DNA of 30,187 bases from a virus. Its lineage: Duplodnaviria > Heunggongvirae > Uroviricota > Caudoviricetes. Positions 9,580-24,940 of this stretch are shown here, in pieces. The position numbers and the translations under genes are program-made. The DNA is taken from the IMG/VR virus record IMGVR_UViG_3300029033_000135. One strand, written 5' to 3'. Below the pieces are notes generated by a model, which saw only the letters and a list, made by a program, of their open reading frames with translations, had not been told where the DNA came from and searched no databases. Position 1 is the first letter of the stretch, and each line of letters starts with the position of its first letter.

Positions 9580-12006
9580 ATGATGAAAATCCATACCACA
9601 GAGGCGCTCATGAAGGCTGAAATCAGCCGTAGAAGTCTGATGAAAACCTCCGCACTTGGCAGTCTTGCGCTGGCAAGCAGTGCTTTCACTCTGCCATTTT
9701 CCCAAATGGTCCGGGCGGCAGAGGCTCCGGTAGAAGAGAAAGCGGTCTGGAGTTCCTGCACCGTTAACTGCGGGAGCCGCTGTCTGTTACGTTTGCATGT
9801 GAAAGATGACACCGTGTACTGGGTGGAGTCTGATACGACAGGTGACGACGTCTACGGTAACCATCAGGTTCGAGCGTGTTTACGCGGGCGCTCTATCCGC
9901 CGACGGATGAATCATCCTGATAGGTTGAAATATCCCATGAAGCGCGTCGGCAAGCGCGGTGAAGGTAAATTTGAACGGATAAGTTGGGACGAAGCCCTGG
10001 ATACCATCAGTGATAATCTTCGGCGGATCCTGAAAGATTACGGCAATGAGGCTGTACATGTCCTGTACGGAACAGGCGTAGATGGCGGAAACATCACCAA
10101 CTCAAACGTCCCGTACCGTCTGATGAACTCTTGCGGTGGTTTTCTCAGTCGCTATGGCAGCTACAGTACCGCACAGATCAGTGCCGCAATGAGTTATATG
10201 TTCGGTGCCAATGATGGCAACAGCCCGGATGATATCGCCAATACGAAACTGGTCGTTATGTTCGGAAATAACCCGGCAGAAACGCGGATGAGCGGCGGTG
10301 GTGTCACTTACTACGTCGAGCAAGCCCGCGAACGTTCAAACGCACGCATGATCGTCATCGATCCACGTTATAACGACACTGCTGCCGGGCGTGAAGATGA
10401 ATGGCTGCCCATTCGCCCTGGCACCGATGGCGCACTGGCCTGTGCGATTGCCTGGGTACTGATTACTGAAAACATGGTCGATCAGCCATTTCTCGACAAA
10501 TATTGTGTTGGTTACGATGAAAAAACGCTGCCCGCCAACGCACCACGTAACGCGCATTATAAAGCCTATATTCTGGGCGAAGGGCCTGACGGCATAGCTA
10601 AAACGCCGGAATGGGCAGCAAAAATCACCAGCATCCCGGCAGAAAAAATTATCCAGTTGGCACGAGAGATCGGTTCAGCAAAACCTGCTTATATTTGTCA
10701 GGGTTGGGGGCCACAACGACATTCCAACGGCGAGCAAACGTCCCGCGCTATTGCCATGCTTTCCGTTCTCACCGGTAACGTCGGCATAAACGGCGGCAAC
10801 TCAGGTGTACGCGAAGGTAGCTGGGATCTGGGGGTAGAATGGTTCCCGATGCTTGAGAATCCTGTTAAAACGCAGATTTCCGTCTTTACATGGACAGATG
10901 CCATCGACCATGGTACGGAAATGACCGCGACCCGTGATGGTGTTCGTGGAAAAGAAAAACTGGATGTCCCCATCAAGTTTTTATGGTGCTACGCCAGTAA
11001 CACATTGATCAATCAACATGGCGACATCAATCACACCCATGAGGTGCTTCAGGATGACAGCAAGTGCGAGATGATTGTTGGCATTGACCACTTCATGACG
11101 GCCTCGGCTAAGTATTGCGATATCCTGTTGCCCGACCTGATGCCAACAGAGCAAGAAGACCTTATCTCTCATGAATCTGCAGGGAATATGGGCTATGTGA
11201 TCCTCGCCCAACCCGCAACCTCAGCAAAATTTGAACGCAAACCCATCTACTGGATGCTGAGTGAAGTCGCCAAACGCTTAGGACCAGACGTTTATCAAAC
11301 CTTTACTGAAGGTCGCAGTCAGCATGAATGGATCAAATATCTCCATGCGAAAACGAAGGAACGTAACCCTGAGATGCCCGACTACGAGGAGATGAAAACG
11401 ACCGGGATCTTTAAGAAAAAATGCCCGGAAGAACACTACGTCGCTTTCCGCGCATTCCGTGAAGATCCACAGGCAAACCCGTTGAAAACACCTTCGGGGA
11501 AAATCGAAATTTATTCTGAACGACTGGCGAAGATTGCAGATACCTGGGAATTGAAAAAAGATGAAATTATTCATCCCCTTCCTGCGTATACCCCAGGTTT
11601 TGATGGCTGGGACGATCCCCTGCGGAAAACCTATCCACTGCAGTTAACGGGCTTCCACTACAAGGCGCGTACCCACTCCAGCTACGGCAATATTGATGTG
11701 TTACAGCAGGCCTGCCCACAAGAGGTGTGGATCAACCCCATTGATGCTCAGGCTCGCGGTATCCGTCATGGCGATACCGTGCGGGTATTTAACAATAATG
11801 GAGAAATGCTGATTGCCGCAAAAGTGACTCCGCGTATTCTGCCTGGCGTTACCGCCATCGGGCAAGGTGCGTGGCTTAAAGCGGATATGTTTGGTGACCG
11901 GGTCGATCACGGCGGCAGTATCAATATTCTGACCTCTCACCGCCCTTCACCGCTGGCAAAGGGAAACCCGTCGCACAGCAATCTTGTCCAGATCGAAAAG
12001 GTTTAA
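9580..12006 (+). CDS. ynfF: Tat-exported molybdopterin oxidoreductase YnfF (tandem paralog of YnfE)
   Basis: 808-aa ORF with Tat motif (SRRSLMKTS) and Cys cluster (CTVNCGSRCLLRLHV); collinear with YnfE along its whole length. The second Met at 9583 is an alternative start. Confidence 0.95.
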   Translation: MMKIHTTEALMKAEISRRSLMKTSALGSLALASSAFTLPFSQMVRAAEAPVEEKAVWSSCTVNCGSRCLLRLHVKDDTVYWVESDTTGDDVYGNHQVRACLRGRSIRRRMNHPDRLKYPMKRVGKRGEGKFERISWDEALDTISDNLRRILKDYGNEAVHVLYGTGVDGGNITNSNVPYRLMNSCGGFLSRYGSYSTAQISAAMSYMFGANDGNSPDDIANTKLVVMFGNNPAETRMSGGGVTYYVEQARERSNARMIVIDPRYNDTAAGREDEWLPIRPGTDGALACAIAWVLITENMVDQPFLDKYCVGYDEKTLPANAPRNAHYKAYILGEGPDGIAKTPEWAAKITSIPAEKIIQLAREIGSAKPAYICQGWGPQRHSNGEQTSRAIAMLSVLTGNVGINGGNSGVREGSWDLGVEWFPMLENPVKTQISVFTWTDAIDHGTEMTATRDGVRGKEKLDVPIKFLWCYASNTLINQHGDINHTHEVLQDDSKCEMIVGIDHFMTASAKYCDILLPDLMPTEQEDLISHESAGNMGYVILAQPATSAKFERKPIYWMLSEVAKRLGPDVYQTFTEGRSQHEWIKYLHAKTKERNPEMPDYEEMKTTGIFKKKCPEEHYVAFRAFREDPQANPLKTPSGKIEIYSERLAKIADTWELKKDEIIHPLPAYTPGFDGWDDPLRKTYPLQLTGFHYKARTHSSYGNIDVLQQACPQEVWINPIDAQARGIRHGDTVRVFNNNGEMLIAAKVTPRILPGVTAIGQGAWLKADMFGDRVDHGGSINILTSHRPSPLAKGNPSHSNLVQIEKV

Positions 12007-12016
12007 AGAGTAGCCC

Positions 12017-12130
12017 ATGACCACACAATATGGATTTTTTATCGATTCCAGCCGCTGTACTGGCTGTAAAACCTGCGAACTGGCGTGCAAAGATTTTAAA
12101 GTTGGTTACGTATCGTTTAAAATCAATTAG
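12017..12130 (+). pseudogene. ynfG: 5' fragment of ynfG (Fe-S subunit), truncated after codon 28 at the junction with the inserted element
   Basis: ATG at 12017 encodes MTTQYGFFIDSSRCTGCKTCELACKDFK, identical to the remembered YnfG N-terminus including the first ferredoxin Cys motif. From 12101 it diverges (VGYVSFKIN) and stops at 12128-12130. Confidence 0.8.
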
Positions 12131-12174
12131 ATAGCCCGTCATTTCTGCGCTCACACGTCCCAACATTGAAAAAC

Positions 12175-12208
12175 ATGCAAAGCTTTGTAAGCCGATGCAA
12201 AGCTTTGT
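12175..12208. promoter_or_regulatory. Two copies of a 14-bp repeat (atgcaaagctttgt), each containing the perfect 10-bp palindrome CAAAGCTTTG, 20 bp centre to centre
   Basis: Direct observation: copies at 12175-12188 and 12195-12208, about 75 bp inside the junction. Operator-like geometry for a dimeric DNA-binding protein. Confidence 0.4.
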
Positions 12209-12354
12209 GTGTCTCACTTTTGTCCCAATACCAATCCGAATCCACCCTTTGTCATCATTGAGAAATGGCAAGGAAGAAAAGGATGTTACTGCACGATTTG
12301 ACAAATCCGCCAGAGCTATCGCATATTGACCGCACTGAACAAATAAGCGGTCAT

Positions 12355-12400: not shown

Positions 12401-12838
12401 ATGAAAAACCTTTTAAATAATTTTCTTGACAATTGCATTGAAAATATTTTACCAAAAGATGATTTTGGTTATGGGCGTCTTTTAATCGGCTCAAAGGGTA
12501 AACGTATTAAAACTGGCGCGCATAGGTTAATTTACCGAATTTTTATTGGAGAAATTCCTGCGGGCATGGTTGTCAGGCATTCTTGCGATAATCCTGCATG
12601 TTGTAATCCAAAGCATTTACTAATAGGAACAATCCTTGATAATAATGCTGATCGACAGAAACGAAAACGCCAAGCACGTCATGAAAAACATGGGCGAGCA
12701 AAACTAACTAAAGAGCAAGTGCTATTTATAAGAGCTAATGAAATGAGTATACCAAATTCAGTTCTTGCAGATAAATACAGGGTCTCCAATAGCTTAATAT
12801 GGCAAATAAAAAACTATCGCATTTGGAATGAATTGTAA
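12401..12838 (+). CDS. HNH homing-type endonuclease
   Basis: 145 aa; HNH_3-like core AHRLIYRIFIGEIPAGMVVRHSCDNPACCNPKHLLIGT followed by a basic tail. Confidence 0.8.
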   Translation: MKNLLNNFLDNCIENILPKDDFGYGRLLIGSKGKRIKTGAHRLIYRIFIGEIPAGMVVRHSCDNPACCNPKHLLIGTILDNNADRQKRKRQARHEKHGRAKLTKEQVLFIRANEMSIPNSVLADKYRVSNSLIWQIKNYRIWNEL

Positions 12839-12943: not shown

Positions 12944-13118
12944 TGCCTGTCATTCAGTGATGGCACAATGTGCGGTCACATCCCCGATCCATGTCGGGAG
13001 GGCGACGAATACAACACCCGCAAGGGGAATAAGTCCGCGGTATCTTTTGGGCCGTTTCGAGCCTCCCGGCACCACATTTTGTGGTGGCATTTCTCGAAAA
13101 AAGCCAAAGGAGGTCATC

Positions 13119-13736
13119 ATGACCACTCAACTCATCCCTGTGTTTGAAGGTACAATCTCAAATGAACCTACGCTTCTGGTGAACGCGCGTGATTTGCATG
13201 GGTTTTTAGAGGTAGGTAAAGATTTTTCTAACTGGATACGGGCCAGGCTAAACGAGTATGGATTCGTAGAAAATTTAGACTACATTCTATTTTCGCCAAA
13301 TTTGGCGAAAACTCTAGGCCGCCGCCGCAAGGACTACCACCTCACCCTGGACACAGCCAAAGAGCTTGCGATGGTTGAACGAAACGAAAAAGGCCGCCAG
13401 ATCCGCCGCTACTTCATCGAGTGCGAAAAGAAACTTCGCAACATTCAGCCAGTACAAGCAGAATCACAGCCACAATTTACCGCCGAGGAAATCATCCTCC
13501 TTTGCTACATGCAACTCTGGATGGAAAAAGCCCAGGACCTTAGCAAGCAGCTGTACCCCATAATGAAAGAGCTGAACTCCTCATACACGAACAAGCTGTA
13601 TGACATTGCGTTTGAGACTATCTACATGGTGACGAAGAACAGAGACGCGNNNNNNNNNNNNNCGTCTCGACATGTCAAGTTCCGTTATCCAGCGGGCCAT
13701 GCCAATGCTGAAAAGCCTGCGGGCAAGACAATTTGA
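13119..13736 (+). CDS. Phage antirepressor-like protein (ORF6N / P22 AR N-terminal type domain); C-terminus uncertain because of the assembly gap
   Basis: Strong SD aaggaggt (13107-13114) before the ATG at 13119. N-terminal domain PVFEGT..LLVNARDLHGFLEVGKDFSNWIRARLNEYGFVENLDY is typical of ORF6N/antirepressor domains. A 14-N gap at 13649-13662 makes the downstream frame and stop (13736 or 13743) unknown. Confidence 0.7.
   Translation: MTTQLIPVFEGTISNEPTLLVNARDLHGFLEVGKDFSNWIRARLNEYGFVENLDYILFSPNLAKTLGRRRKDYHLTLDTAKELAMVERNEKGRQIRRYFIECEKKLRNIQPVQAESQPQFTAEEIILLCYMQLWMEKAQDLSKQLYPIMKELNSSYTNKLYDIAFETIYMVTKNRDAXXXXXSRHVKFRYPAGHANAEKPAGKTI
13649..13662. other. Run of 14 N (assembly gap or masked bases) inside the antirepressor gene
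   Basis: Direct observation; flanked by GAGACG (13641-13646) and its reverse complement CGTCTC (13663-13668). Confidence 0.95.
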
Positions 13737-13747
13737 ATTCTGAAACC

Positions 13748-13770
13748 AAAGGAGCTTCGGCTCCTTTTTT
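13748..13770 (+). terminator. Rho-independent terminator downstream of the antirepressor gene
   Basis: aaaggagc-TTCG-gctccttt hairpin (UUCG tetraloop) followed by a T run. Confidence 0.85.
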
Positions 13771-13939
13771 CATGCCTGAACGACAACGCCGCTGAAATCG
13801 AAGAGTTAATACAATAAAGAGAAGAGCTCAGTACATTAGATAAACATTTTTTATCATTATCTCATTGCCTTTATTCAAAAAAATAGTTACATAACGTTAC
13901 TAGGTAAAATGCAAACCCTCGCTATTTTTATCAGATTGT

Positions 13940-15166
13940 ATGCCGGTAACTATAACAAAAATCAGAACTGGAGAAGATGTTTTGTCAGCAGCCATTCACC
14001 GCATTGAATGGTTGTTTGAAACATTCTCTTCTGTATGTTTATCTTTTTCTGGCGGTAAAGATTCCACTGTACTTTTCCATCTTGTAGCCGAAGTGGCCTA
14101 CAGGAAGAAACGTCGTTTTTCTGTATTGTTCATTGACTGGGAAGCCCAGTATCAATGCACCATTGATCATATACAGAAGATGCGGATGATGTACCAAGAT
14201 GTAACAGATACCTTTTACTGGGTTGCACTTCCCCTGACGACAGTAAATGGTGTCTCGCAGTTTCAGCCTGAGTGGATATGCTGGGAGCCCGGTGTAGAGT
14301 GGGTTCGACAGCCACCGGAAGATGCTATTACTGATATGGCGTATTTCCCCTTTTACCGCTACGCCATGACTTTTGAAGAATTTGTCCCAGCTTTTTCTTC
14401 CTGGTTCGCAAGTAACCAATGTAGCGTGGCAATACTGACTGGAGTCCGCGCGGATGAATCTCTTAACAGATTTATGGGACTGGTTTCCCAACGAAAACTG
14501 AGATATGCAGATGATAAACCCTGGACCACGGCGTCACCTGAAGGTTTTTACTACACCATGTATCCGCTGTATGACTGGAAAACCAACGATATCTGGGTAT
14601 ATAACGCTAAAACCTGTGCAATCTACAATCCTCTGTATGATTTGATGTACCGTGCAGGCATTCCTCTACGTAATATGCGTGTCTGTGAGCCTTTTGGCCC
14701 GGAACAGCGTAAGGGACTATGGCTTTATCATGTTCTGGAGCCAGAAACTTGGGCACGGATGTGTGAACGAGTATCTGGTGCTGCCAGTGGGGCTCTTTAT
14801 GCCAATGAAAGCGGGGCCTATTTTGCCCTGCGTAAACGGATGTCAAAACCATCCCATCATACCTGGCGCAGCTATGCGTTCTTCCTGCTGGACGTAATGC
14901 CGGAAAGAACGGCTGAACACTACCGCAACAAGATAGCAGTCTACCTGCGCTGGTATCAGAACCGGGGATTCCCGGATGATATCCCGGATGAACAGGAAAA
15001 TGATCTGGGCTGCCGGGATGTTCCCTCCTGGCGACGTATTTGTAAGACTCTCATAAAGAATGATTTCTGGTGCCGAACGCTCTCCTTCAGCCCCAACAAA
15101 CCCCGGCACTATGAACGTTACCTGCAGCGTATGAATGAAAGGAGGAAGGAATGGGGAATTCTGTGA
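13940..15166 (+). CDS. ibrA: PAPS-reductase-like PP-loop ATP pyrophosphatase (IbrA-like)
   Basis: 408 aa; PP-loop motif SFSGGKDS at residues 34-41 (nt 14039-14062), with a long C-terminal extension. A TTG at 13985 with GGAG upstream is an alternative start. The ibrA assignment is from memory of the IbrA/IbrB regulator family. Confidence 0.7.
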   Translation: MPVTITKIRTGEDVLSAAIHRIEWLFETFSSVCLSFSGGKDSTVLFHLVAEVAYRKKRRFSVLFIDWEAQYQCTIDHIQKMRMMYQDVTDTFYWVALPLTTVNGVSQFQPEWICWEPGVEWVRQPPEDAITDMAYFPFYRYAMTFEEFVPAFSSWFASNQCSVAILTGVRADESLNRFMGLVSQRKLRYADDKPWTTASPEGFYYTMYPLYDWKTNDIWVYNAKTCAIYNPLYDLMYRAGIPLRNMRVCEPFGPEQRKGLWLYHVLEPETWARMCERVSGAASGALYANESGAYFALRKRMSKPSHHTWRSYAFFLLDVMPERTAEHYRNKIAVYLRWYQNRGFPDDIPDEQENDLGCRDVPSWRRICKTLIKNDFWCRTLSFSPNKPRHYERYLQRMNERRKEWGIL

Positions 15167-15795
15167 CACCAGAGGTGGAGGTGCTGAGCAAGATGATTCG
15201 ACAGTACTTCAGTCAGGAACAATCTGAAGAGAAAACCATACAGGCCCTGAACCATCTCCGCTGCGTACTCCATGAGATCAGCCCCTTTGCTCAAGAACCA
15301 GTGGACTGTGTGCTGTGGGTAAAAGCGGATGAAATTGTCGCTAACGATTATAATCCCAATGTCATGGCCCCAAGCGAAAAAAAATTACTGAAACAATCTC
15401 TGGAAAAAGACGGTTTTACTCAACCAATTGTTGTTTCGGAAGAAACAAGCCATTACCTGGTGGTGGATGGTTTTCATAGGCAGTTACTAGGTAGAAGAAC
15501 AGTTACTGGAAAACGCCTGAAAGGCTGGCTACCAGTAACCTGTATTAATCCAGACCGAAAGGGACAAACCTCACGTATTGCCGCGACTATCCGACATAAC
15601 AGAGCCAGGGGGAAACACCAGATAACCTCAATGTCTGATATTGTCAGAGATCTTTCACGTCTTGGCTGGACTGATGAACGTATCGGAACAGAACTGGGGA
15701 TGGACCAGGATGAAGTTCTGAGGTTAAAGCAGATTAGCGGGCTAACGGAGTTATTTCAGCAGGCAGATTTCAGCCCTGCATGGACTGTTACATAA
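15151..15795 (+). CDS. ibrB: ParB/Srx-like nuclease-domain protein with C-terminal HTH (IbrB-like)
   Basis: 214 aa; ParB/sulfiredoxin-fold motif LVVDGFHRQ and a C-terminal HTH-like segment (TDERIGTELGMDQDEVLRLKQISGL). Its start overlaps the upstream stop by 16 nt and has the SD aaaggaggaagga. Confidence 0.7.
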   Translation: MGNSVTPEVEVLSKMIRQYFSQEQSEEKTIQALNHLRCVLHEISPFAQEPVDCVLWVKADEIVANDYNPNVMAPSEKKLLKQSLEKDGFTQPIVVSEETSHYLVVDGFHRQLLGRRTVTGKRLKGWLPVTCINPDRKGQTSRIAATIRHNRARGKHQITSMSDIVRDLSRLGWTDERIGTELGMDQDEVLRLKQISGLTELFQQADFSPAWTVT

Positions 15796-15883: not shown

Positions 15884-16408
15884 CTACCTCAGATCACCTA
15901 ATAATATATCAAGATTATTTTGCGCATTAATGCTATTCGCCATTACTGTTGCTGCTTCTGGCAACTTTCCAAGAGCAATAAATATATTCTTAAGGCTGAT
16001 TGGAATTGATGAACCATGCGGATCGCGCCACTCACCGCAAATTCTGTGAGTTTCATCACAAAGCCTGAACGCATCCCAACCTCCATATTGACCAAAAATT
16101 ATGTCCATTGACTCTATTTCTGCGGGCGATAACTCCCCCAGCTCATCAACAGAAGAAAATGTACGCCACATTTCAACCTTATGATCCGCTACATCAGATA
16201 TCCATGATTCCCACGGACTGTACTCGTTTTCACTTCCATCCTTAACCAAAGAATATGTCTGCGATAAAACGGGTCCTTTGTTCATAGAGAAATAATGATC
16301 ACCACTAATGGGAAAACCATACAACTCCATTGCTTTGCGGTCAGAGAGATACATCAGCTTAATGAAACGCATAGATCCGCCATGTTTTTTCAGCAAATAC
16401 GCTGCCAT
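15884..16408 (-). CDS. Phage-associated GepA-like protein (DUF4065 / Panacea antitoxin-type domain), no adjacent toxin gene
   Basis: 174 aa; N-terminus MAAYLLKKHGGSMRFIKLMYLSDRKAMELYGFPISGDHYFSMNKGPVLS fits my recollection of the DUF4065/GepA family N-terminus. It stands alone with 150 bp of spacer upstream. Confidence 0.6.
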   Translation of the reverse strand: MAAYLLKKHGGSMRFIKLMYLSDRKAMELYGFPISGDHYFSMNKGPVLSQTYSLVKDGSENEYSPWESWISDVADHKVEMWRTFSSVDELGELSPAEIESMDIIFGQYGGWDAFRLCDETHRICGEWRDPHGSSIPISLKNIFIALGKLPEAATVMANSINAQNNLDILLGDLR

Positions 16409-16558: not shown

Positions 16559-19500
16559 TTAATCCACTCCCACTTTTTTGTTGTACTCGCGGTTAAAGCG
16601 ATCCACGGCAACCTTCATATCCCGCTCTACCGATTTCACCATCGCCGCCTGCTGCGCCAGACTGAGAGAACTGTCGGCATAAATGGCATCGCGCTGTTTG
16701 CGCAAATCCTTCAGTCTCTTCCGGGTATCCTGCATAAGCCCGTTCATCAACAATTTTCCGTTGTTCTCGTCAATGAACGCCGTTCTTTCTGCACCGGTCA
16801 GACTCTTCAGCTCTGCGTGATACTGCGCAACCTCTGTCATCCGGTCGTACATCTTCTGCTGGTCTGCATACGGCATCACCTCACCCGAAATTTTCCCCAG
16901 GAAGGGCACCTGCTGCTCCGGTATATCAATACCGTTCAGCGATTTCACCGCCGCATCTGTGGTTTTGGAAATGAAGCGCCCTGTCCCTCCGGAGATATAG
17001 TCAATCCAGAATTTCAGCGATTCCGGTGTGATATCCACCGCGCCGGGACGATACTGGCTGCCACCTGAGAACGCATTCAGCCAGGATGCAAACGCCTTGT
17101 ACGCCTCAGGCGTTGAACGTCTGCCCAGCTGGCTGTCCGGTTTCGGTGTGCCAAATGGCATGTTCTCCTGGTAAATCTGCGCCCCCATGAAGTTTTCATT
17201 CATGGCAAGGTTCGCAAACGGACGCAGAATGGTCGGCGCTGCATTTTTCAGCAATGCCCCGGACAGTGTTTCCGACGTTTCACTGCCCACAGGACTGAAT
17301 GCCCCCAGGATACCACCGACAACATTACCGGCAGCACGTGAAGCAGTCAGGTCGCCCGCTGCCACACCTTCAGCAGTATGCCCGAGCAGGAAGAAAACGT
17401 TGTACCCGTAAGGCAGAGGAATACTCCAGTACTCTCCGGCCTTGCCCCCGAACACCGATTTCATAATGACGAGGTTACGCTCTTTCACATGAGACGGCAC
17501 CTTGTCATACCAGTTAACCCCGTCATCATCCTCCCCCGCAACACTGCGGTTAAGCGAGCCAAGCAGATAACCCGCTCCCACAGCTGCAAGCGCGATTTTC
17601 TGCGGTACATTGAGATTCTTCCAGCGAAGGCGCTCCGGTAACGGCCCGTCGCCATTAAGATGTCCGAGCGTTCTCACCAGGTTTGCGGTCCCCTGAATGC
17701 TGGCGTTGGCAAACATATACAGCGAGTTCATCAGCGCTCCCTGCTCACCACGACGGTTAAAGTTCACCGTCATGTTTTTGGCAAGAGATGCCGCCTGCTG
17801 GCGTGACAAACCGGCATCACGGGCGTGTTTATAGGCAGAAAGACGCAGAGCGTTTTCAACCGCGCCGTTGGCATCCTCGACCAGGTTCAGGAACGAATGC
17901 CATGCACCGATACTCTGGCCTTTCCATCCTCCCTTCGCCAGCGATACAAGGCGATCCATTTCCTTCTGCTGGCCTTCAAGGTCACCCATGTTAAACCAGC
18001 CGGTTTTACCTCCGTCCTCAACAAACTCTTTCCACACCTTCTGCCACTGCGCACCGTTGCCCGTGAGGGTTTTACCACGCAGACTGGCGTATACGGCAGA
18101 CATGGCAGACCGGCTGTCTTTCACCACAGCCAGGGCGGATAAGTTATCCAGCCCTTTCAGTTTACCGTCGCTCCTTCCCTGCTCCGCCTTCAGGTTCATC
18201 ACCGCCGTCTGCACGTCACGGATGAAGTTACTGACCAGGAATTCCGGGTTATACGACGTGTTCACCGTTGCCAGGAAGCGGTTAACTTTCCCCAGCGTGC
18301 GGATTACGGCGTTACTGGTTTCCGGTCCCATATTCTTCATCGCACGCATCAGGCGCGGATCATGGAGTTTGATGTAGTACGTTTTGCCGTTCTTTTTGGT
18401 GGTGAAGTACCGGTCTGCCATCATTGCCATCGGTACAGGACGTTCGACAACTTCGTGACGGGTTTCACCGGTTTCCGGAACAACACGCTCTGCAATCGCA
18501 CGCATGGTGTCCGGTCGCTCATTGGTGAATACCTGCCAGTAATCCTTGTCTGGATTATCCTGTACCAGTTTCAGGAAGGCGTTACCTACTTCATTTTTGC
18601 GATTGCGGATCAGCGATTCGCTCAAGTCCTGTATCGCCTGAGTGGACGGAGACTGTGCGCGGGATGCACGCCCCATGGCCTGCCTGCTTTCACGTCCGCC
18701 GATAGTGAAGCCTTTACCTGTACGGGGCAGTGACACCACACCGTCAACATCCTGGCCTTTCAGAGGAACGTAGTAACGGTAGGCGTTCTGCCAGGCATCC
18801 ACCACACCGCTCTCTTCCAGTCCGGCCTCACGGATAAGCTCACGGCGACGGGCCAGCATATCGTCAACAATCCCTGCCAGACGGTCATACTGTGCCTGTT
18901 TGCCACTGTTACGCACACGCTGCATGATTTCCGCCGCTTCCGCGTTGGTCATCCCCGAACCGCCGTCCGGCATTTTCGGGTTGATTTTCGCGATATGCGC
19001 GTTACGTTCCGGCGCGTGACGGGCGTAGAGGTACTCATCCAGATCGGCCTGCGCAATTTTGTAGTCCGCCAGTAATTTAGCCAGCGGCTGAACATAGCGC
19101 TCCTTCATCACGTTCAGGTCGTTTTCCGCCTTCCCGTGGAAGAGTTCTTCCGCCATATAAGCGTTGTTACTGTCGTCTATTTTTCCGCCAGTTTTACGGA
19201 TATTCTCCTGAACAGCTTTCAGCACCTGGAATTTATCCTGCATCTGGCGCACAAAACGCGATGCAATTGTCTCTTCCGGTGTCAGACTGCTGGTACGGGA
19301 GTAATGCGGCCCCTTGCGAATATCTTCAGGATAGAGTATTTTATCCGCAGAGCCGCGATAAGAATGTTCCCCTTTGGGCAATTGGAGCCCTCTGTGCAGA
19401 AGGTTATCGCGGCTTAATTTTTCTCTCCGGTACAACGTTAACCCGGTCATTTCCATACTCTTCAGTTTTTTTCCATTTTCTGTACCGTAAACAGAAGCTA

Positions 19501-22500
19501 CCTTGTTGATTTCCAGACGCGACCGGACAGCCTTCATGTGTACCGCTGACACCACCGGATCACCATTTTTATCCACGGCATCAAGCAGCATCACAACCGC
19601 ATTTCTTTCTGTCGCTGAGTGGTAAATTGCATCCGGATCGTGCATCAGTTCCGGTAGTCTCTCGATAACATCCATCGGCACCACATGTTTCACACCATTG
19701 GTGGCCTTACGCACAGTGTCGCGGGAGATAACCAGCGGCAAATCTGGTGCGCCAAGGTGACGCAATACCGGCGGCGTACGCCCGATGTTTACCGTTAAAT
19801 CCGTTGAGCGCAGAGACTTCATCATTCTGGCAAGGTCATCACGATAACGCTCGCCCTCACCTTCCGGCACTTTGAACGGATCAGGCTTACCGCTACGGGA
19901 GTACTGAGACGATGCGCCAGCGCCATCCTCACGCGGCGTGTAACCTTCCCGCACACGCTGGCCTAACGTGCGAATAGTTTCGCGAACAAGTCTGATATCG
20001 TTCAGCTCTGTCGGCTTCAGTAACCCCGTGCGACGCAGTACCCCTTTGACCAGGGCAACAACACGCTCCCACGCCGCCACAAATTTATTCGGCTGTTTCT
20101 CCGCCATATGTGCCAGAAATTCACCCGCCTGCACTTCCGGTGATTCCTTACCATAAGACGCATCAACCTTACGCCAGGCTTCACGGATGGTGGCGTTATC
20201 ACTGTCACGGGTTTTCAGCACGGTCTTAATAATCGTCTGATATTCCGCTGGCGTGACTACATGCTCCATTGCATGGTGGATAATCTCGTGACGCAGCTTC
20301 TCGCGAACGGTCCGCCCGTCAGGAATGTTATCCGCCACCAGGACAATTTCACGTTTATCCGGACGATAGAACGCATGCACCCTGCCGTAACCGTCGAACG
20401 ATTCACCCGCCAGCGCTTCAGCCTCTTTCTGTGACTTCACCACGCGGACCTTCAGGTCACTGTCCTTAATGCCACTCATCACGCCACGGGCAACCGCTTC
20501 AACCTGCGGGACCGGGCTGCCTTTGGCTTCCGCACTGCGGTTAACATCCGAAATGAGATTGCCTTCAGGTGTGCGGGTCACGCCCTTACGGGAATAAAAC
20601 GCAACGCCCTTGTCCGTCTCACGGGTTTTCAGCGTACTGAACAGGTGATCGAATGCATCACGAATACCGCCATCCAGTTCCGCATTCGTCGGATAAGCCC
20701 AGGTGTTATCTGTGTTGTGCTCAGGTGCCTTACGGATATTGACCAGATAATCATTCTCCACGCCAGCCGTACGCGCTTTATCCTGAACATAACGCTCAAA
20801 GGCACGCGCCGCCATTTCAACATCCGTTGACCAGTACGGTTTTGAGCGCACCTCATCGAGAAGCGCTGAACGACGCGGCATGTCACTGCTGTTGATCGCT
20901 TTCATCACGCCTTTAAACGCGTCGTAAACCTCCTGACGTACCGGATATTCCGCATCAACATATCTGCCGTCTTTAAATACGCGCCCGGCACGCTGTGCTT
21001 CCGTCATATAGTCGCCACCTGACGTGATCTTCCCGTCAGTGGAAACATCATAACGACCAAAATAATTATCCAGTGAATGGAACCATTCGTGGGCCAGCGC
21101 CCCCGGTCCGTTACCTTTTGTCAGGTTGATTGCCACCTCACCCGGCTCATAGTGTGCCGCCGCCTTACCCTTACCACGGGCACCAAAAGCAAGCCCAAGA
21201 CGACCGTTCAGAGAAAGCGCTTTTGTCGGCACGTTCAGCACATCAGCCAGGTCATGCAGCGAGTCATAAGCCCGGTTCAAATCAGCCTGACGACGCGGAC
21301 CTTCCACATAATTACCAAACTGCACACCACGAAAACCAAACGCATCACTGAACTGCTCCGGCGAAACATCCCCCTTGCGGCGTTCTGGTCCGGTACGATC
21401 GCGGTTGGTGGCGTTACGCTGCTCCTCACGCGAAATCTCCCGCATCTCCTTCACATGACGAACAAGCTCATCACGATGTGAATCAATGTACTTACGCGCA
21501 TCACTGGCTGACTTAAAGCCACCTCTCACCCGCATTTTGTTTTTGCCATAAGCGATAAAAATATCGCCACTGCGGGTATTCCGGTAAACGTCAAAGCGGA
21601 TTTTGTCATCCGGTGACGGTGCCGTTTTTTCATCTCCTTTCGCCTGTGACTTTTCCTCCAGCTCTGCAAACCAGACTTTCGCCTTTGTCAGTAATTCATC
21701 CCTGCTTTCCGAGAAAAAGAGGTTAGTCCCCTTATTGTCCTTATTGCGCAGTGAATAAAGTTTCTGTGGCGGATCGTAACGCTTCCCTCCTGCCGCCTGA
21801 TACACACCCGATACCACCCGATAAGCAGAAGCCTTGTCCATCTGTGAGGGTGGCAGAGTGCGTAACAGTTGCCAGGTATCCGCGTAACGGGAGGGCATTC
21901 TGCCTTCCATCCATTCTGCGAGGCGTTTCGCGCTGACCGTTCCGTTCAGCATTTCCGATACACTGTGTCGTACTTTTTTTACGCTCTCCCCCCAGCCAGC
22001 CGTATTGTGTTTCGTCTTCGCCGGAATATCGCTACGATACAGCGCTATCATTGCCAGGGTGTCAGCATCAGCCCCTTCGCTCGCCAGTTTTGCGTAGTCC
22101 GGTTTCGGGAACAGTTTGCTCAGCGGCTGCGTGGCATAATCCCTGTCTTCCAGCGTTTTACCCAGTGTTTCAGCAAGCTGTGCATAACGGTGTTTGGCTG
22201 CCCCTTTAATTTCCTCGCCAAAGTCTTCAATTTTTTTGCCCCTGACTTCACCTCCGCGCACAGTAGCTTCCCTGTCAGTAGAGACAGTTGTTTCAGATTC
22301 AGGTGCGATTGTCTCAGGCTGCGGGATGTCACGATTTCCTCCGGCCTGTCGACGTACTTCTGCCTGCTGTGCGAGCTCAGGCAATGAGTTACGAACAGTT
22401 CGGGGAAGCTGATCAGGCTGAGGCATACGGACATTGTGTGTAATGTCCGGAGCCGGTAGACCTTCACGTACCAGCGCTGTGGCGTTCTGCTCATCCGGTG

Positions 22501-24940
22501 ACGGCAGACCACGACGAACTGTTTCGCCCTCCAGTATTTCCCCCTGGCGACCAGCGGCGTTTTCCGGTGCCGGAGCACGTCCTTTCTGGAAACTCTGGCC
22601 CTTAACCTCACCGGTTGTGGTAAAACGACCACCACGTCCGGCCTGATTCTCATCCGGCGTACGCGCCACCTCTCCCGGTAACGGATATCCCTGTCCGGGA
22701 TGAATATCGCCGGGGGCGGGCAGACGCGGACGCTCAGTTAACTCCTGTGCTGTCGGACCGGCATCACCTTCAGCCATCTGGGAATGCACCAGTTCTTCCG
22801 CCGTCGGCGCGTTGCCACGGGCAAGACGGGCCTGCACTTCTGTATCATCCCCCGTAAAACCACGGAATCGCGGGTCACGCATGAACGCGGGCTGTTCCAT
22901 CGGATCAGCATCAGTAATACGCTCTCCGTCAGCCAGAGTGTTAATGGTCTCCGTTGCCACATCTTCAGAGAACGCAGGATTATCCATTTCAACGGCATAC
23001 TGATTCTCGCCTTTCTTCACTACGGACGGTTTCAGGCCGGTGGCGCTGGCATTGCGGAAAACGTCGCTCCCCAGAGCACTTTTTTCATCCGTGAAATAAC
23101 GGTTGTCCGGACGCACCTTTTCAATGCGTTCTGCTGGTCTGGACGCACCACTCCCGTTAATTTCAATACGAACTTCATCCGGATCGCGGAACCGCACCGT
23201 CGGGTAAATACTCCCGTCGCCATCATCCGCATTTTCCGGCTGTGGCTGTGCCTCCGGTCTGGCCTCCTGCTGAGGGCGAAGCACATCACGGATAGCCTGT
23301 AACTGCTGCTCTTCAGTATCAGTACGCCCTTCCTTCAGGCTGAGTTTTCGGTATTCCTCAAGCAGTTCAGGGCGCGGCTTCGCCTTCAGCTCATCCATTA
23401 CCGCCTGTCGCTTCGCCTGTTCATCCAGTTCATTCAACAGCTGGCTGGCGGCTTCCCGGCGATGAACGGCAGACGTGTCTTCCTCATGTGCCATATCCGC
23501 ATCAGCATACTGTTCCAGAAGCTGCTCGCGATTCATCCCCTGCATGGATTCACGATGCTGTGCCACCGGATCAACCGGTTCGGGTTGCGGAGCCGATTCG
23601 TCCTGAGGAACGCTTTCAGCCTCACGCATGGCGGTTTCTTCTGCGGCATGACGTCTGCCACGATATCCGGCAACCGCACCGAATGGTGCCCCCATCGCAG
23701 CACCAAGGGCTGCACCTTCGATCGTTGCGTCAGCCACGCCCTCCCCCGGTGACACATCCATTCCGGCGGTCTCACGCAATGCCGTGTTTTCCTGATAGCG
23801 TGAATAGCCACCCTGCGCCGCATTAATCGTCCCCTGTTCCGTGGCATTTCTGACAATGCCGCTTTTAACGGTCTTCGCCGTGCCCCGCATCGCCAGATTA
23901 AGCAACTGAGCATCGCCCAGTTTTGCCGCCATGGCATTCACAGCCAGCAATTCAGGATCTGTTGCCAGCTGCGCGCGCACCTCATCGGCAACACGCTCTT
24001 TTGCCAGATCCATTTTCTGGCGATCAGTAAGCTGTGCGTGCTGCGGATCTGCATCAATTGACAAAAACGTCTGCTGAAATTTCGGGGACTTCGCCAGCTC
24101 AGAGTAATCCGCGTTAAGAACAGAGTCTGCTGCTGCCATTGCACTCTGCCCCTGTGCGCTGGCTGAGGAATGGGTGATCAGGCCTGCCTGGAATAAATCC
24201 GGCATTTTTTTATCGACAGCTTCTGCTGCCAGTGCGGTAGCTCTTTCCGGCTGCATCCCTGCCGCAATGTATTTTTTCTCCAGCCCGGCGGTCAGCACTT
24301 TTCGCAGAGTGACTTCACCCAGCTTTTTAGTCACACCGCCTGCAACCATATCAGGTACAAGGGCACCAATCAGGTTTACGCCCTTCGCCACCCAGACCGC
24401 AGAATCATCATATCCTTCAGTCATCGGTGTATTCAGCGCCCGCTGCGCCCCCGGCGACATCTTGCCAGTCAGCCATTCATCCGAGGCTTTAGCGCCGCCA
24501 CTGACTGCCTTGCCTGTGACCTTCAGACCTTTACCGACAATATCAGTAACCGCATTTTTTCCATCAGGCAGAGTGTCGATGACCTCATCCGCCCCCTTGC
24601 TGCCACCGACAAAAATATCCTGAACAGTTGCGACTCCCGGCAGCCCCATACGGCTGAACTCATTTAAAATACGCGCCCCTGTTTTTACCGGGCTCTGAAT
24701 CATCGCATCACCGAGTCCACGGGCCATTTCCCCTGCCCCCCGGACGGACTGGGCGACACCTTTCCCCATAGTTGGCAATACATCGCCCAGGCTGAACGAC
24801 GTGCTGTTGTCCTTCCAGCGATTGGGATCGGAGAAAAACGCATCATAGCGGTCAGTCTCGCCCGGCTGCTGAATGTTCAGGCTGTTGCGGTTCTGGTTGC
24901 CAAATTGCGCTTCAGGGCGCTGTTCATCGGAATAAGCCAT
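16559..24940 (-). CDS. Giant 2793-aa multidomain protein with two HExxH motifs; polyvalent-protein-like, function unknown
   Basis: One uninterrupted ORF with SD ggag 8 nt before the ATG. Gly/Ala-rich N-terminal part; acidic Pro/Gln-rich low-complexity linker (about residues 430-900); HEWFH at residues 1284-1288 (nt 21077-21091); HEIIHHAMEH at 1551-1560 (nt 20276-20290 for HEIIH). No Walker A motif was found by eye. Confidence 0.8.
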   Translation of the reverse strand: MAYSDEQRPEAQFGNQNRNSLNIQQPGETDRYDAFFSDPNRWKDNSTSFSLGDVLPTMGKGVAQSVRGAGEMARGLGDAMIQSPVKTGARILNEFSRMGLPGVATVQDIFVGGSKGADEVIDTLPDGKNAVTDIVGKGLKVTGKAVSGGAKASDEWLTGKMSPGAQRALNTPMTEGYDDSAVWVAKGVNLIGALVPDMVAGGVTKKLGEVTLRKVLTAGLEKKYIAAGMQPERATALAAEAVDKKMPDLFQAGLITHSSASAQGQSAMAAADSVLNADYSELAKSPKFQQTFLSIDADPQHAQLTDRQKMDLAKERVADEVRAQLATDPELLAVNAMAAKLGDAQLLNLAMRGTAKTVKSGIVRNATEQGTINAAQGGYSRYQENTALRETAGMDVSPGEGVADATIEGAALGAAMGAPFGAVAGYRGRRHAAEETAMREAESVPQDESAPQPEPVDPVAQHRESMQGMNREQLLEQYADADMAHEEDTSAVHRREAASQLLNELDEQAKRQAVMDELKAKPRPELLEEYRKLSLKEGRTDTEEQQLQAIRDVLRPQQEARPEAQPQPENADDGDGSIYPTVRFRDPDEVRIEINGSGASRPAERIEKVRPDNRYFTDEKSALGSDVFRNASATGLKPSVVKKGENQYAVEMDNPAFSEDVATETINTLADGERITDADPMEQPAFMRDPRFRGFTGDDTEVQARLARGNAPTAEELVHSQMAEGDAGPTAQELTERPRLPAPGDIHPGQGYPLPGEVARTPDENQAGRGGRFTTTGEVKGQSFQKGRAPAPENAAGRQGEILEGETVRRGLPSPDEQNATALVREGLPAPDITHNVRMPQPDQLPRTVRNSLPELAQQAEVRRQAGGNRDIPQPETIAPESETTVSTDREATVRGGEVRGKKIEDFGEEIKGAAKHRYAQLAETLGKTLEDRDYATQPLSKLFPKPDYAKLASEGADADTLAMIALYRSDIPAKTKHNTAGWGESVKKVRHSVSEMLNGTVSAKRLAEWMEGRMPSRYADTWQLLRTLPPSQMDKASAYRVVSGVYQAAGGKRYDPPQKLYSLRNKDNKGTNLFFSESRDELLTKAKVWFAELEEKSQAKGDEKTAPSPDDKIRFDVYRNTRSGDIFIAYGKNKMRVRGGFKSASDARKYIDSHRDELVRHVKEMREISREEQRNATNRDRTGPERRKGDVSPEQFSDAFGFRGVQFGNYVEGPRRQADLNRAYDSLHDLADVLNVPTKALSLNGRLGLAFGARGKGKAAAHYEPGEVAINLTKGNGPGALAHEWFHSLDNYFGRYDVSTDGKITSGGDYMTEAQRAGRVFKDGRYVDAEYPVRQEVYDAFKGVMKAINSSDMPRRSALLDEVRSKPYWSTDVEMAARAFERYVQDKARTAGVENDYLVNIRKAPEHNTDNTWAYPTNAELDGGIRDAFDHLFSTLKTRETDKGVAFYSRKGVTRTPEGNLISDVNRSAEAKGSPVPQVEAVARGVMSGIKDSDLKVRVVKSQKEAEALAGESFDGYGRVHAFYRPDKREIVLVADNIPDGRTVREKLRHEIIHHAMEHVVTPAEYQTIIKTVLKTRDSDNATIREAWRKVDASYGKESPEVQAGEFLAHMAEKQPNKFVAAWERVVALVKGVLRRTGLLKPTELNDIRLVRETIRTLGQRVREGYTPREDGAGASSQYSRSGKPDPFKVPEGEGERYRDDLARMMKSLRSTDLTVNIGRTPPVLRHLGAPDLPLVISRDTVRKATNGVKHVVPMDVIERLPELMHDPDAIYHSATERNAVVMLLDAVDKNGDPVVSAVHMKAVRSRLEINKVASVYGTENGKKLKSMEMTGLTLYRREKLSRDNLLHRGLQLPKGEHSYRGSADKILYPEDIRKGPHYSRTSSLTPEETIASRFVRQMQDKFQVLKAVQENIRKTGGKIDDSNNAYMAEELFHGKAENDLNVMKERYVQPLAKLLADYKIAQADLDEYLYARHAPERNAHIAKINPKMPDGGSGMTNAEAAEIMQRVRNSGKQAQYDRLAGIVDDMLARRRELIREAGLEESGVVDAWQNAYRYYVPLKGQDVDGVVSLPRTGKGFTIGGRESRQAMGRASRAQSPSTQAIQDLSESLIRNRKNEVGNAFLKLVQDNPDKDYWQVFTNERPDTMRAIAERVVPETGETRHEVVERPVPMAMMADRYFTTKKNGKTYYIKLHDPRLMRAMKNMGPETSNAVIRTLGKVNRFLATVNTSYNPEFLVSNFIRDVQTAVMNLKAEQGRSDGKLKGLDNLSALAVVKDSRSAMSAVYASLRGKTLTGNGAQWQKVWKEFVEDGGKTGWFNMGDLEGQQKEMDRLVSLAKGGWKGQSIGAWHSFLNLVEDANGAVENALRLSAYKHARDAGLSRQQAASLAKNMTVNFNRRGEQGALMNSLYMFANASIQGTANLVRTLGHLNGDGPLPERLRWKNLNVPQKIALAAVGAGYLLGSLNRSVAGEDDDGVNWYDKVPSHVKERNLVIMKSVFGGKAGEYWSIPLPYGYNVFFLLGHTAEGVAAGDLTASRAAGNVVGGILGAFSPVGSETSETLSGALLKNAAPTILRPFANLAMNENFMGAQIYQENMPFGTPKPDSQLGRRSTPEAYKAFASWLNAFSGGSQYRPGAVDITPESLKFWIDYISGGTGRFISKTTDAAVKSLNGIDIPEQQVPFLGKISGEVMPYADQQKMYDRMTEVAQYHAELKSLTGAERTAFIDENNGKLLMNGLMQDTRKRLKDLRKQRDAIYADSSLSLAQQAAMVKSVERDMKVAVDRFNREYNKKVGVD

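Follow-up and report, generated by a model that had tools for sequence, protein, structure and literature searches.

What might a PP-loop ATP-pyrophosphatase and a ParB-like protein accomplish together, when they are encoded by overlapping genes in a prophage and the usual companions of such enzymes are missing? The question is raised by a locus in a viral sequence from IMG/VR (record IMGVR_UViG_3300029033_000135; Caudoviricetes), a stretch of 30,187 nucleotides (nt) that we refer to as the window, in which two open reading frames (ORFs) follow each other on the + strand, at 13940-15166 (408 amino acids (aa), ATG start) and 15151-15795 (214 aa, ATG start). An earlier note on this DNA described them as an IbrAB-like version of the core pair of DNA-modification systems, and suggested a minimal modification, anti-restriction or defence module. 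We find that the locus is the ibrAB operon itself, which has already been named and is not a new module; the pair is real and was correctly described, and it is known, annotated in RefSeq and common, occurring in about a third of complete Escherichia coli genomes. It is probably not a sulfur system of the Dnd type. The function that we tentatively favour, as a possibility that falls short of being probable, is that of a self-contained two-gene accessory cassette that would act on DNA through an ATP-dependent enzyme and a partner of ParB/sulfiredoxin (Srx) fold, with relief of gene silencing as its outcome.

Identity and layout of the locus

Exact-sequence look-up gives the two products the UniRef names IbrA (RepID Q8KU24_ECOLX) and IbrB (RepID Q8KU23_ECOLX), each of the window proteins being present on at least 1000 contigs, and the label 'IbrAB-like' can thus be replaced by the names themselves. 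Identical proteins, annotated as IbrA and IbrB, are encoded by Escherichia phage PhiR5_2 (listed host K-12 MG1655), whose record gives IbrA a shorter start (394 codons versus 408), while RefSeq uses the labels 'phosphoadenosine phosphosulfate reductase' and 'IbrB-like domain-containing protein'. There is no detectable difference from the IbrA and IbrB of ECOR-9, which represent the same locus in another strain, and to which the window adds an HNH gene (12401-12838) that most close relatives do not have. In work by Sandt and colleagues from 2002, IbrA and IbrB reportedly act jointly to switch on silent eib genes of co-resident prophages, the sole function known to us for the pair, and the ECOR-9 IbrAB island is said to show homology to Stx2 prophages, to contain overlapping genes and antirepressor genes, and to have a boundary near minute 35.8. 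The latter corresponds to the ynfE-G region, i.e. to the same place as the window prophage.

The ORF listing bears out the arrangement proposed earlier, an ORF with the motif SFSGGKDS followed by one with the motif DGFHR, overlapping by 16 nt between the start codon of ibrB (ATG, 15151) and the stop codon of ibrA (TGA, 15164-15166). A ribosome-binding site for ibrB (AGGAGG, 15140-15145, +), read from the sequence, lies ahead of this ATG inside the 3' coding end of ibrA, and the translational coupling claimed for the pair is therefore plausible. Upstream, an intrinsic-terminator-like hairpin (AAAGGAGC-TTCG-GCTCCTTT, followed by a T run; 13748-13771, +), also read by eye and not returned by a consensus scan, lies just 3' of an antirepressor gene and would separate ibrAB from the preceding transcription unit. 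The AT-rich stretch between this hairpin and ibrA (13772-13939, +) is the presumed promoter region; an alignment of four genomic contexts reveals neither a shared promoter nor a shared binding site ahead of ibrA.

Gene neighbourhoods across the family

We surveyed 40 viral loci and 80 from genomes, drawn from groups that include Enterobacterales, Bacillota, Bacteroidota, Actinomycetes, Lentisphaeria, candidate phyla and Rickettsiales; 114 of the loci have room for a neighbour of ibrA and form the basis of the neighbourhood counts given here. All 114 have an IbrB-type gene adjoining ibrA in the same orientation, in the order A-B in 110 of them and with an overlap in 75, and no further gene is generally conserved beside the pair. 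Consequently, ibrAB is an autonomous cassette rather than a Dnd system that has lost its other parts. The earlier note had stressed that the window holds no cysteine desulfurase, SMC-like ATPase or restriction partner, and indeed none is annotated in the near-identical RefSeq region, but the absence of other subunits is the rule across the 114 loci and no local peculiarity. Within E. coli the bare pair is found in prophages, pathogenicity islands and a virulence-plasmid context: copies other than that of the window lie in an island of Nissle 1917, in an O157:H7 island beside a PerC-family regulator and cah, and on a large plasmid beside iro/fec. Moreover, unusually long IbrA-like and IbrB-like proteins offer no informative fusions beyond PAPS_reduct, DUF3440 and ParB_N. 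A single ABC_tran fragment among these long proteins is probably a gene-calling artefact.

No conserved gene partner is thus required by the pair, which does tend to occur together with SNF2 helicases. A gene of this family directly precedes ibrA, and often overlaps it, at 10 loci belonging to 6 of 30 sequence groups in four phyla, with representatives from Bacillota, Bacteroidota, Beta- and Deltaproteobacteria (survey loci L106:8575-10014, L121:8508-9989, L089:8565-9977, L096:7957-9603, L091:2330-3511 and five more), and at some of them a conserved protein of ~397 aa with no Pfam match precedes the helicase. At 13 loci (L089, L104, L108, L109, L111-L114, L116-L119 and L121; e.g. L121:11230-11640) a small ORF of 114-157 aa with the motif FYxYMGxFFGSRxxxxxxNDRIYDDxxKxWY is found between ibrA and ibrB; three variants exceed the Pfam threshold for GNAT, and the clostridial versions match no Pfam family.

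The SNF2 proteins also account for the matches of PADLOC among the neighbours, on its generic ZorD, DpdE and DrmD models, and no recurrent defence system, DndD/E-like or desulfurase-like family was found there. These results bear on a possible role of the prophage-borne pair in anti-phage defence or superinfection exclusion, for example through nucleotide depletion or abortive infection. Such a role would suit a typical accessory-cargo position beside a Panacea-domain gene, and a function as nucleotide-degrading effectors has been proposed for ParB/Srx proteins of conflict systems. However, PADLOC-DB 2.0 returns no match for IbrB and weak partial PP-loop matches only for IbrA, no defence partner recurs, the family is also present in phages taken as virulent, and the Panacea gene is a neighbour in near-identical loci only, all of which makes defence quite improbable in our view.

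In two phages the position of the pair suggests a different kind of role. In Mycobacterium phage Pipefish the gene for the large terminase follows directly after the pair, in Faecalibacterium phage FP_Taranis the pair is flanked by a RinA-like late activator on one side and TerS/TerL on the other, and in both a second annotated ParB-like gene is found just upstream (L125:1-693 and L126:4324-5010, respectively; neither with a Pfam match at E up to 0.001), giving the order ParB-like, IbrA, IbrB, terminase. ibrAB could accordingly assist a phage in its own lytic cycle, at the stage of late gene expression or of DNA packaging, with a ParB-like protein recognising the packaging or late-operon region and IbrA as its enzymatic partner. 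Yet the window prophage carries the pair at its far end and has its late genes on the other strand, the pair of Streptococcus phage PY1 lies in the early/replication region after a helicase, and no packaging genes are found near the chromosomal, island and plasmid copies, so that we consider this explanation improbable.

IbrA: a PP-loop enzyme with a family-specific helical domain

IbrA (13940-15166, +) joins a PP-loop ATP-pyrophosphatase domain of the PAPS-reductase fold to a C-terminal helical region, and profile searches recover both parts above the Pfam gathering score (PAPS_reduct 1.5e-16; DUF3440 5.2e-33, residues 240-343), as well as the PAPS-reductase phage family phrog_2302 of PHROGs (5.8e-86). 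The PP-loop SFSGGKDS occupies residues 35-42 (codons 14042-14065, +); across 48 diverse homologues G39, K40 and S42 never vary, and S37, G38 and D41 are kept in 90% or more. Three further elements are invariant or nearly so in sets of 48-153 diverse homologues, namely D66/E68, GxRxDES (R170, E173, S174, R177) and YPxYDWxxxDIW (D212, W213, D217). A complete SGGKDS loop is of the ATP-pyrophosphatase type, as in CysD and DndC, the loop of CysH being degenerate.

An AlphaFold2 (AF2) model of IbrA has a predicted local distance difference test (pLDDT) score of 76, with low values at residues 248-259 and 375-387. Its N-terminal ~240 residues find human FAD synthase, CysD and APS/PAPS reductases as best solved matches, at 15-17% identity (Foldseek E ~2e-6), whereas direct sequence search of the Protein Data Bank (PDB) yields remote PP-loop matches only. 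The DUF3440 region (residues ~240-408; 14657-15163, +) is helical and family-specific, and a fold search found no structural match for it. Given that the PP-loop and the family motifs are (nearly) invariant and that the nearest structures include the adenylyl-transferring FAD synthase and CysD, we predict chemistry of an ATP type for IbrA.

Cysteines are a less constant feature, and no cysteine column reaches 90% among 153 IbrA homologues. Cys249 (in RVCEPFG), which aligns with the SIGCxPCT region of APS reductases, is 84% conserved, and Cys114, Cys368 and Cys378 are 61-71% conserved, Cys249, Cys368 and Cys378 all being located in the DUF3440 region. The four occur together in 55 of the 153 homologues, the window IbrA included, and every partial combination occurs too.

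IbrB: a ParB/Srx-fold partner

IbrB (15151-15795, +) is a ParB/Srx-fold protein of 214 aa with a helix-turn-helix (HTH)-like C-terminal region. Searched alone, it matches Pfam ParB_N below the gathering score (1.6e-3); the family is more informative, since ParB_N is matched by 16 of 17 diverse IbrB homologues (best 8.9e-10) and DndB by none, and since a family profile searched against the PDB matches ParB, Noc and Spo0J as well as SbnI and SerK. At family level the ParB assignment is thus solid, in agreement with the domain pair proposed earlier. In PHROGs the protein falls into the ParB-like phage family phrog_2159 (4.9e-91), and its own sequence finds remote ParB matches only in the PDB. Taken together, the profile scores of the two proteins lie well above what chance would give.

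Four signatures conserved in 104 homologues (NDYNPN, DGFHR, RHNRARG and LGMxxDEVLRLKQ) are all present in IbrB. The second of these (residues 106-110; codons 15466-15480, +) is the ParB box II, a nucleotide-binding motif of the sulfiredoxin type, in a histidine-containing variant, and its D106, G107, H109 and R110 do not vary among 17 diverse homologues and are kept in 90% or more of the 104. This histidine-type box II resembles the variant of Srx, SerK and DndB, and not the GERR variant of the CTP clamp. A second family signature, RHNRARG, spans residues 148-154 (15592-15612, +) and is recognised from its conservation among homologues. The HTH-like region covers residues ~160-198 (15628-15744, +) and holds the conserved motif LGMxxDEVLRLKQxxGL; the HTH named in the earlier note has weak matches in its favour, to phrog_6831 'transcriptional regulator' (6.9e-4, residues 160-193) and to an HTH-like repeat with the family profile, but a structure model was unable to confirm it.

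Relatives and distribution

Alleles of ibrAB with at least 80% nucleotide identity are present in 1930 of 5426 complete E. coli genomes (36%), among which the window allele (at least 99% identity) accounts for 19 records. The wider IbrA family comprises more than 6,800 clusters at 90% identity, or 1,811 representatives when clustered at 50% identity (E up to 0.001), and 220 phage records carry IbrA homologues, including phages of Flavobacterium, Mycobacterium, Arthrobacter and Streptococcus.

The main rival to our favoured reading is that ibrAB is a DNA-modification or anti-restriction module, in which IbrB would target DNA and IbrA would adenylate a base or the backbone for the addition of a non-sulfur group, protecting phage or mobile DNA from restriction, Dnd or BREX. 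The abundance of phage homologues, the position of the Pipefish pair directly upstream of terminase, the recurrent presence of an SNF2 helicase and, in the interval between the two genes, of a GNAT-like ORF, and the location of the window pair in the variable cargo region of 933W-like phages are all in keeping with such a module. The Mycobacterium phage group to which Pipefish belongs is a virulent one. On the other hand, island and plasmid copies have no surrounding phage, which would be odd for a device that protects phage genomes, and although the pair is so frequent in E. coli and its paralogue is present in K-12, we know of no unexplained DNA modification from strains carrying either. On balance we regard DNA modification as doubtful, but as deserving serious consideration.

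The K-12 paralogue is the operon ybdN-ybdM (b0602/b0601; L122:3748-5570), whose genes overlap by 28 nt and whose products are 57% (IbrA/YbdN) and 61% (IbrB/YbdM) identical to those of ibrAB. The statement in the earlier note that homologues are known only as regulators of eib expression omits this operon. YbdN and YbdM resemble IbrA and IbrB in their two-domain architecture, gene order and overlapping genes, whereas ybdNM differs in being chromosomal, near ahpCF, conserved across Enterobacteriaceae and not phage-borne, and in having a dedicated LysR repressor (YbdO/CitR) and H-NS silencing. Deletion of ybdO raises ybdN by 5.5 log2 and the cys regulon (cysD, N, C, J, I, A, W, U) by 2-2.8 log2, and separately YbdM protein was 29-fold up with a CTX-M-15 plasmid (PMC9068703, PMC8764527). 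The rise of the cys regulon and that of YbdM are unexplained leads to the function of the IbrAB/YbdNM family.

A proposed role in relieving silencing

Under the reading that we tentatively favour, relief of silencing by an autonomous cassette, IbrA and IbrB would function jointly, their translation being coupled; IbrB, a nucleotide-binding protein of ParB/Srx fold with an HTH, would bind DNA and mark sites on it, and IbrA would perform an ATP-dependent adenylylation there, either of nucleic acid or of a DNA-bound protein. The result would be that silencing is relieved and transcription of mobile-element genes activated, with no sulfur insertion proposed. Action on DNA is suggested by the ParB_N assignment, by the HTH-like tail and by the SNF2 helicase upstream of ibrA at 10 loci. 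A regulatory setting is suggested by the tight repression of ybdNM by a LysR regulator, by the PerC-family regulator beside the O157 copy and by the RinA-like activator beside the FP_Taranis pair. Our data establish which genes these are, what folds their domains have, that the two always go together, that the cassette is autonomous and that it lacks Dnd hallmarks; binding to DNA, the adenylylation, its target and the release from silencing are inferred.

Several observations weigh against this interpretation. Homologues beside terminase genes in phages taken as virulent would suit an activity directed at the DNA of the phage itself no less than they suit gene regulation. An AF2 model of IbrB, built from 33 close homologues, has a pLDDT of 48 and is unusable, leaving its DNA binding and HTH unconfirmed. 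The four partly conserved cysteines of IbrA may form a clade-specific (enterobacterial) metal site, and hence indicate a different chemistry. Finally, our searches of the literature on IbrA/IbrB, YbdN/YbdM and DUF3440 returned no mechanistic study and no biochemical data.

A broader and unlikely extension is that IbrAB/YbdNM forms the core of a hitherto undescribed ATP-driven, non-sulfur covalent marking of DNA or of a DNA-bound protein. It would be an epigenetic switch, to which an SNF2 translocase and a GNAT could be added, and phages and mobile elements across bacterial phyla would employ it to activate or protect their DNA. Whichever explanation applies, the interest of the locus lies in a large family of obligately paired PP-loop enzymes and ParB-fold proteins that is carried by phages of many phyla and by the K-12 chromosome. 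If its chemistry were solved, it could reveal a new modification of nucleic acid or chromatin, or a new way in which mobile elements wake silenced genes, and K-12 ybdNM and phage PhiR5_2, which infects MG1655, provide tractable models.

Prophage setting and flanking genes

The accessory site described earlier, between an antirepressor and a GepA-like gene, is confirmed by Pfam, which identifies AntA/P22_AR_C at 12957-13736 and Panacea/SocA (GepA-like, antitoxin-like) at 15884-16408 on the - strand. Within the antirepressor ORF a run of 13 N at 13650-13662 (masked bases or an assembly gap) appears as XXXXX in the translation. No toxin-sized ORF adjoins the Panacea gene, the gaps to its neighbours being only 88 and 150 nt, and we rejected this gene as a part of the module, as it neighbours ibrAB in six near-identical loci only. 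Next to it, and convergent with ibrAB, is a gene for an LPD38-domain polyvalent protein of 2793 aa with a zincin-like HEWFH motif (16559-24940, -). Polyvalent proteins of the LPD38 type are proposed counter-defence factors that are injected along with phage DNA. On the other side, an HNH_3 homing-type endonuclease gene (12401-12838, +) separates the antirepressor from the prophage end; it has the appearance of a recent insertion, because most of the closest E. coli relatives, and PhiR5_2, match only from ~12846 onward.

In a near-identical E. coli chromosome the host side reads rspBA-ynfABC-speG-ynfD-ynfE-ynfF, followed by a truncated 4Fe-4S gene (ynfG), past which come antirepressors, ibrA, ibrB, Panacea, a 2790-aa LPD38 protein, more phage genes, Hok, Lom and a tail fibre. 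This gene order puts ibrAB in a 933W/Stx-like prophage that is inserted in ynfG, at its attachment-site end. The prophage interrupts ynfG directly after ynfF (window ~12006-12300; cf. L123:13718-13801), and the antirepressor-ibrAB segment (ant-ibrAB) is therefore downstream of ynfEF in the same orientation. Read-through from the anaerobic ynf promoter into ant-ibrAB is thus conceivable from the layout. A long hairpin is present at 12173-12212, between ynfEF and ant-ibrAB. At the left of the window there is an integrase gene (440-1735, +), which in a related genome (L123:1-3436) is preceded by excisionase and exonuclease genes; it is part of a second prophage that abuts rspB, so that the host segment rspB-ynfF lies between two prophages.

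Comparison with known systems

The earlier note had likened the pair to the core of the Dnd, Ssp and Dpd systems, and at superfamily level the analogy holds: DndC/DndB and SspD/SspB, like IbrAB, combine a PP-loop enzyme of the PAPS-reductase superfamily with a ParB/Srx-superfamily or DNA-binding protein, and the motif of DndB, DGQHR, is resembled by the DGxHR-type motif of IbrB. Beyond this level it fails. The DndC model TIGR03183 gives 17.8 bits on IbrA against a cut-off of 290.4, the DndC models of PADLOC give 17.6-20.6 bits over residues ~160-260 only, and the models of DndC and SspD lack the DUF3440 of IbrA; for IbrB, a comparison with DndB and DpdB yields no PADLOC family and Pfam ParB_N only, the DGxHR motif being the sole similarity. 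Furthermore, DndC requires three iron-sulfur (Fe-S) cysteines, which hold a 4Fe-4S cluster, and a cysteine dyad for sulfur transfer, and cysteines of either kind are not conserved across the 153 IbrA homologues.

One might nevertheless suppose that ibrAB is a minimal phosphorothioation system of Dnd/Ssp type, with host IscS as its sulfur donor, given the common superfamilies and the finding that IscS can replace DndA in Dnd systems. IscS, however, could stand in for the desulfurase only, whereas partners of the DndA/D/E and SspB/C kinds are absent from the window and none recurred across the surveyed loci, and together with the model scores, the missing cysteines and the lack of DndB matches this makes phosphorothioation very improbable.

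The database names of IbrA suggest an auxiliary metabolic gene instead, a true PAPS/APS reductase for sulfur assimilation, for which the induction of the cys regulon in the K-12 ybdO deletion, with ybdN derepressed, could be cited as an indirect lead. CysH, CysD and FMN adenylyltransferase do share the N-terminal fold and nucleotide-binding motifs of IbrA. Nonetheless, CysH/APS-reductase models score far below their cut-offs (NF002537 32.9 bits versus 154; TIGR02057 31.2 versus 254.2; TIGR02055 21.2 versus 235.3), and the IbrA translation has no C-terminal ECGLH catalytic cysteine. IbrA also differs from CysH and CysD in its extra helical domain of 170 residues and its obligate ParB-like partner, neither of which has a role in sulfate reduction, and its full SGGKDS loop sets it apart from the degenerate loop of CysH. 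Sulfur assimilation is accordingly the explanation to which we attach the least credence, and we consider it scarcely tenable. A relation to BREX type 4 is poorly matched, as the BrxP model, of 779 positions, gives 28 bits on IbrA residues 17-96 only and the window contains no BREX genes, and IbrB is no member of a canonical ParABS system, having DGFHR in box II instead of GERRxR and no ParA gene in the window.

A closer functional parallel for the DNA-modification alternative comes from a Vibrio phage, in which a fusion of a PAPS domain and Dam, transferred with one other gene, gives resistance to host Dnd (Piel et al., bioRxiv 10.1101/2021.05.05.442762). Like IbrA, this protein carries a phage-borne domain of the PAPS-reductase family, and it has an experimentally supported counter-defence role; unlike IbrA, it is a single 479-aa Dam-methylase fusion with no DUF3440 and no ParB partner, and this difference in architecture limits the support that it lends. 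PAPS reductases also occur in Aca-regulated, putatively anti-defence operons (Feussner et al.), which again favours the same alternative.

With respect to the relief of silencing that we tentatively prefer, the relevant comparison is with the anti-silencer VirB, with SbnI and SerK, which are of the ParB/Srx-fold kinase/regulator kind, and with DpdB, all of which share with IbrB a ParB/Srx N-terminal domain joined to a DNA-binding part. IbrB differs from ParB and VirB in that DGFHR replaces the GERRxR CTP motif, and VirB, SbnI, SerK and DpdB have no partner of the PAPS-reductase fold. VirB is a ParB-family protein that counteracts H-NS silencing, and SbnI is a regulator and kinase of ParB/Srx fold; both provide precedents for ParB-fold proteins as activators or in phosphotransfer.

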